Source: Escherichia phage vB_EcoM_11B_SA_NWU. Taken from it: DNA of 64,000 nt. Below the pieces are notes generated by a model that saw nothing but the letters and a program-made list of their open reading frames with translations, was not told the DNA's origin and made no database searches. A program made the position numbers and the translations under genes. The stretch is taken from sequence record OR062527; one strand, given 5' to 3'. Every line of letters starts with the position of its first letter. Position 1 is the first letter of the stretch. Shown piece after piece: positions 10,455 through 14,125 of this stretch.

Positions 10455-11873
10455 TTATGGATAGGTATAGATGATACCAGTTTCTAAAGCAGTTTTATGA
10501 ATGATGTATCCATTACGTGATTCTTGAACATCAACTTCTGGATAGTCTTTCATCATCTTCTGAAGAGTGTAACGATGCAAGTAGTACTTACTATCTGGAT
10601 CGTCAGTTTTCCAATCTTTACCTTCTTCAGTCATTTTTTGGATTTCATCCATAACCCACCAACCGCACCAGATGTAAGCTGAAGTACGGTGTGGAAGAGG
10701 ATGAACATAAGGCAATTCACCTTCTGGTTCCGGAGCAACTTTATCAGTCACTTGAACTTGACCTGTTGTTTTAACTGTTTTGCTATCATAATCAGTTGCT
10801 GCAACGACAGCAGTAACTTCAATAGTTTGACTTCCAACAGATGAGGTATCGACAGTATATACGTTAGTTGACCCTTCTACAGGAGAAGAATCTTTCTTCC
10901 ACGAGTAAGTAATTTGTGCTTCTTCTGGAGCATCCGTAACATTAGCCGTAAATGTAGCCGAAGCATCTTGCTGAACGTTAATAGAAGGAGGAGTCAATGT
11001 AACCTGTGGATTCATTGTCTTCTTATTAACCGTTAATGATACTTCATTCGAAGTAACTTCCTTTTCATTGTAATTTTCAGCAGTTACTTGGGCTACGCAT
11101 TTAATTCTTTTTACTCCACTTGTAGTTGGAGTATAGCTAAATGTAGAGTTAGTTTCTCCACCAACTTGTGAATCATCTACATACCACTGATACGTAGCAG
11201 ATGCTCCATCAGGTTGAGAAGCTAAGGCAGCAGTAAATTGAACTGGGGTTCCAATTACTCCAGCTGAAGGACTATCGGGAGTTACTGCCAAAGTAGTTGT
11301 CTGTGTCTTTTTATTAACAGTCAGTGACACTTCATTAGAAGTAACTTCTTTTGCATCATAATCTGTCGCGGTTACTTGAGCTACACACTTAATTGTTTTA
11401 ACTCCACTTGTGTCAGGAGTGTAATTGAATGTAGCGCTAGTCGCTTCGCTCACAGGAGAACTGTCAACGTACCATTGATACGTAGCAGATGCGCCTGATG
11501 GCTGCGAAGCCAAAGCAGCGGTAAATTTAACAGCTGTTCCAATCACTCCAGCCGCAGGACTAGCAGGAGTTACGGCTAAGGTAGTCGTCTGTGTCTTATT
11601 TTTAACTGTGATAGTTGTTGTCGCTTCAGCCGTTTCCGGGCCTCCTTCAGAAAGTGTATTTGTTGCAACTACTTTAATAGTCTTTTGACCAGCAGGACCT
11701 TTTAATACATAATCAAAAGTTGCTTCAGACCCATCTTGTGGAGCATTATCTACACTCCAAGCATAAGTAATAGTTCCACCTCCAGTTTCACCACTGGGTG
11801 CAGCAGTAAACTGCTTGGTTTCATCAATAACTCCTGACGGTGTTTTAGGAGTTATATCAACTGTAAAAGCCAT
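10455..11873 (-). CDS. hoc: Hoc, highly immunogenic outer capsid protein, with four Ig-like repeats
   Basis: 472 aa; repeated ~95-aa Ig-like units then capsid-binding C-terminus; T4 Hoc is 376 aa. Confidence 0.85.
   Translation of the reverse strand: MAFTVDITPKTPSGVIDETKQFTAAPSGETGGGTITYAWSVDNAPQDGSEATFDYVLKGPAGQKTIKVVATNTLSEGGPETAEATTTITVKNKTQTTTLAVTPASPAAGVIGTAVKFTAALASQPSGASATYQWYVDSSPVSEATSATFNYTPDTSGVKTIKCVAQVTATDYDAKEVTSNEVSLTVNKKTQTTTLAVTPDSPSAGVIGTPVQFTAALASQPDGASATYQWYVDDSQVGGETNSTFSYTPTTSGVKRIKCVAQVTAENYNEKEVTSNEVSLTVNKKTMNPQVTLTPPSINVQQDASATFTANVTDAPEEAQITYSWKKDSSPVEGSTNVYTVDTSSVGSQTIEVTAVVAATDYDSKTVKTTGQVQVTDKVAPEPEGELPYVHPLPHRTSAYIWCGWWVMDEIQKMTEEGKDWKTDDPDSKYYLHRYTLQKMMKDYPEVDVQESRNGYIIHKTALETGIIYTYP
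11013..11588. repeat. Tandem direct duplication (2 x 288 bp) encoding Ig-like domains 2 and 3 of Hoc
   Basis: Two consecutive 96-aa units (TTTLAVTP...SLTVNKKT) nearly identical at protein level. Confidence 0.7.
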
Positions 11874-11882
11874 AAGTTATCC

Positions 11883-12563
11883 TTATTTTAATGTTACGAA
11901 AGAAGAATTGCGTGTTTCACGAATTAGAACTGATCCGTCGCGATTAATGTAATAAATTAAGCTAAACAGAGTTTGGTGTGCTGACGCGTGTTCAAAACTA
12001 GTTGGATGAGATTTCCAATCAGGAGTTTCAGCGATCCATTGATAAATCCACCAAGGAACCGTACAGAATCCTGGATTTTTCCCCAATAATTGAAGATTCG
12101 GGCTAAAGTTTTCCGGAAGAGTAAATACAGACGGCTTTTCAGATTCAATAATCTCAGCTACAGCTTGTTCAAACTTTTCTTCAACAAAAGGAGTGTCTTC
12201 AATCAAAACATCAGTATTTTCAGGAATTTTATCCGTTTCTACCACTTCAATTTTAATATCAGATTTAACTGGAGAATCAATCAGAAGTGCTGCTTCTGGA
12301 TTAACTTCTTCATCGTCATATTTTAATCCCTCTGCAGCATCAGCAGCATCAATTAAGTCTTTAATAGATAACCCATCAGTCTCTGGCATAGGTTCACTAG
12401 CGAGCTTCTGGAGGGCTTCTTCAATATCAACAACAATATTATCAAAAGATTTATTCTTTTTGACCTTTATACCAAACTGTTCAGCATATTCAGCTAATTT
12501 AGCTTTAGCTTCTTTATTATCATCAAGAGCCTTCAGCTCTGCAATATAATCTTTATCTATCAT
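11883..12563 (-). CDS. inh: Inh, inhibitor of prohead protease
   Basis: 226-aa ORF between hoc and uvsW as in T4; SD gagg 8 nt upstream. Confidence 0.7.
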   Translation of the reverse strand: MIDKDYIAELKALDDNKEAKAKLAEYAEQFGIKVKKNKSFDNIVVDIEEALQKLASEPMPETDGLSIKDLIDAADAAEGLKYDDEEVNPEAALLIDSPVKSDIKIEVVETDKIPENTDVLIEDTPFVEEKFEQAVAEIIESEKPSVFTLPENFSPNLQLLGKNPGFCTVPWWIYQWIAETPDWKSHPTSFEHASAHQTLFSLIYYINRDGSVLIRETRNSSFVTLK

Positions 12564-12613: not shown

Positions 12614-14125
12614 ATGACTGACATTAAAGTACATTTTTATGATTTTAGTCACGTGAGAATTGATTGTGAAGAAAGTACATTTCATGAACTCCGTGATTTC
12701 TTTAGCTTTGAAGCTGATGGGTATCGTTTTAATCCGAAATACAAATATGGCCACTGGGATGGACGAATCCGTCTTTTAGATTATAATCGCCTTCTTCCAT
12801 TCGGCTTAGTCGGGCAAATTAAAAAGTTCTGTGATAACTTTGGCTATAAAGCCTGGATTGACCCACAAATTAACGAAAAAGAAGAATTATCAAGAAAAGA
12901 TTTTGATGAATGGCTTTCTAAATTAGAAATCTATTCAGGAAATAAAAGAATTGAACCACACTGGTATCAAAAAGATGCAGTGTTCGAAGGATTAGTTAAT
13001 CGTCGTAGAATTCTTAATCTTCCAACTTCGGCTGGTAAATCTTTAATTCAAGCTTTGCTTGCACGTTATTATTTGGAAAATTATGAAGGTAAAATTCTTA
13101 TCATTGTTCCAACAACTGCTCTGACAACTCAGATGGCTGATGACTTTGTTGACTATCGTTTATTCAGTCATGCAATGATAAAGAAAATTGGTGGCGGAGC
13201 ATCAAAAGATGATAAATATAAAAATGATGCACCAGTCGTTGTTGGTACATGGCAAACTGTAGTAAAACAACCAAAAGAATGGTTCTCACAGTTTGGAATG
13301 ATGATGAATGATGAATGCCATCTTGCTACAGGAAAAAGTATTTCATCTATCATATCAGGTTTAAATAACTGTATGTTCAAATTTGGTCTATCTGGTTCAT
13401 TACGTGACGGCAAAGCCAATATCATGCAGTATGTTGGAATGTTTGGCGAAATATTTAAGCCAGTAACGACTTCTAAGTTAATGGAAGATGGACAAGTAAC
13501 TGAGCTAAAAATTAATAGTATTTTTCTTCGTTATCCTGATGAGTTCACTACTAAATTAAAGGGAAAAACTTACCAAGAAGAAATAAAAATTATTACGGGG
13601 CTTAGTAAAAGAAATAAATGGATCGCTAAATTAGCTATTAAGCTTGCGCAAAAAGATGAAAACGCTTTTGTCATGTTTAAACATGTATCGCACGGTAAAG
13701 CTATTTTCGATTTAATTAAAAATGAATACGATAAAGTTTATTACGTATCAGGGGAAGTTGATACCGAAACACGCAATATAATGAAAACCTTAGCTGAAAA
13801 TGGTAAAGGAATAATTATAGTAGCTAGTTATGGTGTATTTTCTACTGGTATTTCAGTTAAAAATCTGCATCACGTTGTTTTAGCGCACGGTGTTAAATCA
13901 AAAATCATTGTATTACAAACAATCGGTCGTGTATTACGTAAGCATGGTTCTAAGACAATAGCAACAGTCTGGGACCTCATAGATGATTGCGGTGTTAAGC
14001 CAAAATCTGCTAATACGAAAAAGAAATATGTTCATTTGAACTATCTTTTAAAACACGGCATTGATCGTATTCAGCGCTACGCGGATGAAAAATTTAATTA
14101 CGTAATGAAAACAGTTAATTTATAA
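12614..14125 (+). CDS. uvsW: UvsW SF2 DNA/RNA helicase
   Basis: 503 aa; Walker A TSAGKS and DECH box present. Confidence 0.9.
   Translation: MTDIKVHFYDFSHVRIDCEESTFHELRDFFSFEADGYRFNPKYKYGHWDGRIRLLDYNRLLPFGLVGQIKKFCDNFGYKAWIDPQINEKEELSRKDFDEWLSKLEIYSGNKRIEPHWYQKDAVFEGLVNRRRILNLPTSAGKSLIQALLARYYLENYEGKILIIVPTTALTTQMADDFVDYRLFSHAMIKKIGGGASKDDKYKNDAPVVVGTWQTVVKQPKEWFSQFGMMMNDECHLATGKSISSIISGLNNCMFKFGLSGSLRDGKANIMQYVGMFGEIFKPVTTSKLMEDGQVTELKINSIFLRYPDEFTTKLKGKTYQEEIKIITGLSKRNKWIAKLAIKLAQKDENAFVMFKHVSHGKAIFDLIKNEYDKVYYVSGEVDTETRNIMKTLAENGKGIIIVASYGVFSTGISVKNLHHVVLAHGVKSKIIVLQTIGRVLRKHGSKTIATVWDLIDDCGVKPKSANTKKKYVHLNYLLKHGIDRIQRYADEKFNYVMKTVNL

Follow-up and report, generated by a model that had tools for sequence, protein, structure and literature searches.

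T4 nanotechnology relies on Hoc as its main display scaffold, and the protein has been proposed as the mucus adhesin of T4-like therapeutic phages. In T4, one Hoc monomer sits centrally on every gp23* hexamer (155 per capsid), and the protein is dispensable for growth (PMC10385173, PMC9958956). Hoc forms a 180-Å fiber of Ig-like domains with the C-terminal domain as its anchor, and the number of Ig-like domains varies among phage Hoc proteins, with 10 in that of Serratia phage Muldoon (PMC10385173). A natural Hoc variant without Ig-like domain 3 (D3) has also been described; in the Hoc of PhiPNJ-9, residues S183-L184-T185 of Ig-like domain 2 (D2) bind fucose on MUC2 and were reported to be essential (PMC11853027).

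An enlarged Hoc is also on record for phage RB30, whose hoc entry (AY101183) carries the repeat_region note [quoted passage not shown]; this repeat has been annotated in GenBank since 2002. Our search of the accessible literature found no paper on the five-domain Tequatrovirus Hoc or on the RB30 repeat, and PMC10580926, PMC3347537 and PMC13390416 contained nothing on Hoc domain number. Here, we analyzed the hoc gene in a stretch of 64,000 nt from Escherichia phage vB_EcoM_11B_SA_NWU (OR062527), hereafter referred to as the window.

The hoc gene of the window and its tandem repeat

In a phmmer search against PDB, the product of the window gene matched T4 Hoc (5vf3_Z) with E = 1.6e-222, the best stretch pairing aa 201-472 with residues 105-376 of 5vf3_Z. 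This match and the nearly unchanging C-terminal region place the protein among the T4-like Hoc proteins. An earlier note on this DNA, made from the sequence alone, had named the gene as Hoc and given its length as 472 aa versus 376 aa in T4; the former agrees with the PDB match and the latter with the ORF and the T4 record (X14869). The gene occupies the T4-type genomic position of Hoc, between the 24.x genes and inh/uvsW (Table 1), and inh is annotated directly upstream of hoc in related records. Over its first 25 kb, the window is 98.4-98.6% identical to Tequatrovirus ECP52 and vB-Eco-KMB42, the nearest genomes overall, and the nucleotide identity of hoc itself is 98.8% to vB-Eco-KMB42 and 93.3-93.5% to RB27/RB30.

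Table 1. Features of the hoc region of the window (positions are those of the 64,000-nt stretch)
Feature	Position	Strand	Basis or remark
hoc, highly immunogenic outer capsid protein, five-domain allele	10455..11873	minus	472 codons + TAA stop
Ig-like domain 1 (D1), aa 1-94	11592..11873	minus	translation; AF2 beta-sandwich, block-mean pLDDT 80-93
Repeat unit 1 (alpha), aa 95-190, first copy of D2	11304..11591	minus	repeat coordinates
S183-L184-T185 of alpha unit	11319-11327	minus	
Longest alpha/beta identical run (17 nt, GCATCTGCTACGTATCA), alpha copy	11476..11492	minus	KIT03-type deletion crossover interval
Repeat unit 2 (beta), aa 191-286, second copy of D2, T4-type	11016..11303	minus	repeat coordinates
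S279-L280-T281 of beta unit	11031-11039	minus	
Identical 17-nt run, beta copy	11188..11204	minus	
Ig-like domain 3 (D3), aa 287-380	10734..11015	minus	AF2 beta-sandwich; weak Pfam matches
C-terminal capsid-binding domain, aa 381-472	10458..10733	minus	nearly unchanging across 31 aligned Hoc proteins
inh	11883-12563	minus	hoc neighbor; T4 gene order
503-aa ORF	12614-14125	plus	position annotated as helicase uvsW in related records

A repeat search and TRF both identified a direct tandem repeat in hoc with a period of exactly 288 nt, present in two copies, in frame and gap-free (TRF score 707, 2.1 copies, 1% indels). The count exceeds two because the end of D1 resembles the unit ends: the final 18 nt of D1 (ACAGTTAAAAATAAGACA) are similar to the final 18 nt of the units (ACTGTTAATAAAAAGACA and ACGGTTAATAAGAAGACA; window 11592-11606 and 11304-11321, minus strand). 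This likeness is a plausible micro-homology behind both the original duplication and the zero-unit allele of phage F2 described below.

The earlier note had read the region as two consecutive 288-bp repeats encoding an extra Ig-like domain, and the repeat indeed corresponds to a second D2 copy in an in-frame tandem arrangement. Its placement at 11013-11588 (residues ~96-191 and ~192-287) captured the repeat, with a register one codon off, which is immaterial for a tandem repeat. The description of the units as near-identical does not hold, as they share 220 of 288 nt (76.4%) and 77 of 96 aa (80.2%) and their longest identical run measures 17 nt. Third codon positions account for 44 of the 68 nucleotide differences. 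Random 288-nt segments of the window had a mean identity of 26.5% and a maximum of 39% (n = 20,000), and the repeat is therefore far beyond chance. The amino acid identity of the units is 38% to D1 and 39-44% to D3.

Among Pfam families, PKD (37.3 bits versus a cut-off of 23.5; best stretch aa 195-267, in the beta unit) and Ig_2 (28.2 bits versus 27) passed their cut-offs, while Ig_3 and I-set matched aa 289-356 in D3 weakly, under the curated cut-offs. An AlphaFold2 (AF2) model based on an input alignment of 31 sequences showed aa 1-380 as four successive beta-sandwich domains (block-mean pLDDT 80-96, at least 90 in the alpha unit), with a matching strand pattern in the alpha and beta units; confidence was low over the C-terminal domain. 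The best Foldseek matches of this model were the four-Ig strings of Dscam1, Sidekick-2 and ICAM-5, and Hoc of RB49 (3shs) ranked 32nd (E = 5.4e-10). By Pfam, AF2 and Foldseek, the protein thus has the N-terminal string of Ig-like (PKD / I-set-like) domains that characterizes Hoc.

The window gene can be aligned from end to end with RB30 hoc (93.3%) and represents the RB30-type five-domain allele. Hoc of RB30 and RB27 (AY101183; KM607000) likewise has 1419 nt, 472 aa and the order alpha-beta, and RB30 differs from the window by allelic substitutions only (orthologue dS 0.09-0.28 across gene segments). T4 Hoc (5vf3 chain Z; UniProt P18056) shares D1, D3 and the C-terminal domain, but its single D2 is of the beta type; it lacks the alpha unit and therefore has three Ig-like domains, compared with four in the window. 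The six-domain Hoc proteins (568-570 aa; UGKSEcP1/2, YUEEL01, EC101, ESh16 and others) belong to the same repeat family, with alpha followed by beta, and have a third unit, gamma, which is absent from the window. The PhiPNJ-9/BYEP01-type Hoc (283 aa) is another natural domain-number variant, with a D2 that contains the S183-L184-T185 MUC2 site; it lost D3, whereas the window gained or retained a second D2. Hoc of RB49 (3SHS) and other multi-Ig Hoc proteins resemble the window protein in their linear Ig-like string on a conserved C-terminal anchor, but their sequence identity is low and their domain number changed independently.

Unit types and contraction among Tequatrovirus alleles

Megablast with the window hoc returned 658 phage records, of which we sampled 60 evenly spaced hits. 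Two-unit spans of 1419-1425 nt made up about a third of this sample (19/60) and one-unit spans of ~1131 nt were found in 32/60; other spans were 852 nt (2/60), 843 nt (1/60) and that of a three-unit gene (1/60). Hoc proteins in the protein database fall into length classes of 568-570, 472 and 376 aa, and three-unit genes of 1704 nt occur in at least 20 phage records. The alpha-beta arrangement, with ~76-78% identity between units, is also present in RB27, RB30, PP01, ECO4, Mizar and others. The five-domain repeat is an already known, common polymorphism, and the 472-aa Hoc should be annotated as a standard allele, neither a novelty nor an error. By itself, the hoc repeat raises no new biological question. 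The cassette pattern of alpha, beta and gamma units, for which we found no systematic description in the searchable literature, and the clean natural contraction pairs reported below add modest new detail.

We hand-picked 24 Tequatrovirus hoc genes out of the 658 records (the window, 19 GenBank records and 4 IMG/VR contigs), leaving out slur03 (no start codon found) and ACG-C40 (frameshifted gene). An HMM built from the two units of the window identified 40 units in this set. In a neighbor-joining (NJ) tree, the units clustered by position and not by genome (bootstrap 100% for the alpha and gamma clades and 82% for the beta clade). The first unit of the window fell into the alpha clade and the second into the beta clade, beside the single unit of T4. 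The tree and the painting of diagnostic sites agreed that the two are orthologous to the alpha and beta units, respectively, of other two-unit alleles. Gamma units stand third in three-unit genes and second in HP3 and U115.

Painting of 120 cluster representatives revealed alpha-beta, alpha-gamma, beta-gamma and alpha-beta-gamma arrays as well as alpha, beta and chimeric single-unit alleles, and several units were mosaic. Natural hoc alleles thus carry 0, 1, 2 or 3 units. The 376-aa form of T4 is one among several coexisting alleles and not a starting form that gained a domain in the window. Single-unit alleles of "pure" alpha or pure beta type could be ancestral instead of deletion products. 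In the six-domain proteins (568-570 aa), represented by the genes of UGKSEcP1, YUEEL01 and T4_ev151 and by the database proteins P0001-P0008, the three units have diverged and follow the order alpha-beta-gamma. Despite its name, the record "T4_ev151" (LR597660) contains a three-unit hoc, unlike the single-unit gene of T4.

Several alleles correspond to a relative minus exactly one repeat period. Removal of 288 nt from the window gene gives KIT03 hoc (376 aa), with 12 mismatches over 1131 nt, none of them inside the chimeric unit; mismatches are fewest with the breakpoint at unit nt 99-116, the location of the 17-nt identical run. Hoc of EcO157kw equals that of ECP52 minus 288 nt (breakpoint at unit nt 180, 5 mismatches). 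Two further genes equal the three-unit gene of YUEEL01 minus 288 nt, namely those of U115 (breakpoint nt 246-269, 4 mismatches over 1419 nt) and HP3 (breakpoint nt 226-236, 19 mismatches). These four independent, near-identical allele pairs represent natural one-step contractions from two units to one or from three to two. The window allele itself was rejected as a clean deletion derivative of any sampled three-unit allele (at least 128 mismatches). Hoc of F2 (280 aa) has no D2 unit, its D1 being fused straight to D3 at the ITV(K)NK(T)/LTVNKKT similarity, and D3 is absent from Hoc of BYEP01 (283 aa), as it is from the published PhiPNJ-9 variant.

The sequence comparisons support a role of the units as recombination substrates, for contraction only, by which natural alleles with 2 to 5 Ig-like domains would interconvert. 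The phage pairs KIT03 and the window phage, and U115 and YUEEL01, offer a ready isogenic-like series in which fiber length and D2 copies can be related to mucus adherence, immunogenicity and aggregation.

Origin and age of the second D2 copy

We consider it very probable that an old duplication of D2 gave rise to a cassette array with recurrent contraction and, by extrapolation to function, to a lengthened fiber. The extra domain would have arisen in the Tequatrovirus lineage when the D2 module was duplicated in tandem and in frame (288 bp), well ahead of the divergence of today's hoc alleles, and both copies would then have been kept by strong purifying selection. The D2 region would constitute an array of at most three old cassettes (alpha, beta and gamma), in which homologous recombination in short identical runs of the ~76%-identical units would repeatedly delete one period. 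The predicted outcome is the set of alpha-beta-gamma, alpha-beta, alpha-gamma, beta-gamma, single, chimeric single-unit and zero-unit alleles. We infer the direction and order of the duplication and contraction events from sequence.

An unlikely alternative is that single-copy alpha and beta D2 modules, diverged as alternative alleles of different phages, were joined in tandem by an illegitimate unequal crossover during co-infection, using the short stretch in which the D1 end (ITVKNKT) resembles the D2 end (LTVNKKT). Co-infecting T4-like phages recombine freely, single-unit alleles of both the alpha type (teqhad, an IMG/VR contig) and the beta type (T4, RB9) are found, and 18 nt at the end of D1 are partly identical to the end of the unit. 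However, the single-unit alleles that have a close multi-unit relative are chimeras with a breakpoint inside the unit, and hence deletion products and not parents; moreover, the alpha-beta(-gamma) order and the junctions are identical in all sampled genomes, which suggests one origin. Such a fusion of alleles also predicts the same present anatomy and the same verdict of an old and not recent event.

For the favored tandem duplication of D2, the age can be estimated from the divergence of the two copies. In the window, alpha and beta differ with pS 0.62, dS ~1.33, dN 0.118 and omega ~0.09 (Nei-Gojobori), the dS being imprecise because pS is near saturation. The low omega indicates that both copies are translated and constrained, and points to both units being held under strong purifying selection. 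Between-unit dS in ten other two-unit genomes was 0.60-1.25, and orthologous units of the window and other phages differed with dS 0-0.57. This high dS between units and the clustering by position imply that the duplication is older than the diversification of the Tequatrovirus hoc alleles. Identity between units of the same genome was 75-82% in every multi-unit genome of the 24-gene set. Concerted evolution or gene conversion between units was rejected, given this uniform identity and the lack of any homogenized tract longer than 17 nt. The alpha/beta/gamma family was not recognizable in the ~50%-identity Hoc proteins of more distant T4-like phages. The comparisons indicate a duplication of intermediate age, which is younger than the origin of the Ig string and far from recent.

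The earlier note had proposed a recent event; on such a reading, D2 of a T4-type four-domain hoc would have been duplicated in this phage lineage and left nearly identical, highly unstable copies. The exact 288-nt period, the reading frame and the absence of indels would fit such an event, as would the fact that the units are 80% identical to each other at the amino acid level versus 38-44% to D1 and D3. The pattern that the note itself had named as counting against its reading, units as diverged as the other Ig-like domains, was not observed. Nevertheless, a recent origin is very improbable. It is contradicted by the 76.4% nucleotide identity and dS of the window units, by the same arrangement with a similar inter-unit identity in RB27, RB30, PP01, ECO4, Mizar and others, by well-supported clades formed by position (bootstrap 82-100%), and by an architecture common to about a third of the sampled Tequatrovirus records. 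Neither near-identical synonymous sites nor within-genome clustering was observed, and the agreement of independent genomes excludes that the divergence is a sequencing or assembly artefact. The view of the repeat as a substrate for further recombination was borne out with regard to contraction, by the alleles with 0-3 units and the KIT03 deletion derivative. Recent expansion or duplication was not seen, as 0 of 55 within-protein unit pairs (39 cluster representatives and the window Hoc) exceeded 85% amino acid identity.

The least credible alternative, a mis-assembled second unit or a hoc not expressed as one protein, could appeal to the fragmented hoc annotations of ACG-C40 (two CDS) and UFV05/06 (span of 1418 nt), but no assembler can mistake one unit for the other when 24% of their sites differ, the ORF is unbroken in the window, the same ORF of 1419 nt recurs in dozens of genomes that were sequenced independently, and omega is 0.09. 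The ACG-C40 locus is 1 nt longer than its relatives, and the UFV05/06 match to the window hoc is 1 nt shorter than the gene; these irregularities are likely frameshifts or sequencing errors in the homopolymer-rich hoc.

Possible consequences for the capsid fiber and variation in other Hoc lineages

The near-identical C-terminal domain suggests that, as in T4, one Hoc monomer would be bound per gp23* hexamer. By extrapolation from T4, the additional Ig-like domain would add ~4-4.5 nm, about the length of one domain, to the projecting fiber. The S-L-T residues are found in both units of the window (S183-T185 and S279-T281) as a sequence motif. The window allele may therefore present two fucose-binding sites per fiber, and a longer fiber with a doubled D2 fucose/MUC2 site could differ in its reach and in its avidity toward mucus or cell surfaces.

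A broader reading, which we put forward tentatively and regard as rather doubtful, is that the D2 array is long-lived and its unit combinations form a balanced polymorphism maintained by adhesion or immune selection, with frequent contraction at micro-homologies of up to 17 nt and rare or absent expansion. If this were true, copy number would act as a natural tuning knob that sets how long the fiber is and how many glycan-binding sites the capsid surface carries.

For distant comparisons, we used a scan of IMG/VR viral contigs that yielded 21 loci, few of them close. Two of these (L006 and L007; 471-472 aa, ~50% identity) encode a Hoc with four Ig-like domains in which the extra domain is a second D3-like module and not a D2; the duplicated D3-like pair is 57-76% identical at the amino acid level. 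A third (L012, 282 aa) lacks the D2 position. These layouts imply that Hoc domain number changed independently in another lineage. Finally, one mosaic protein of 567 aa (P0042) combines a Tequatrovirus D1, alpha unit and C-terminal domain with three far more divergent Ig-like domains in the middle, which scored 92, 71 and 19 bits against the unit HMM compared with ~180 bits for true units. This composition suggests a cassette exchange with a different Hoc lineage.
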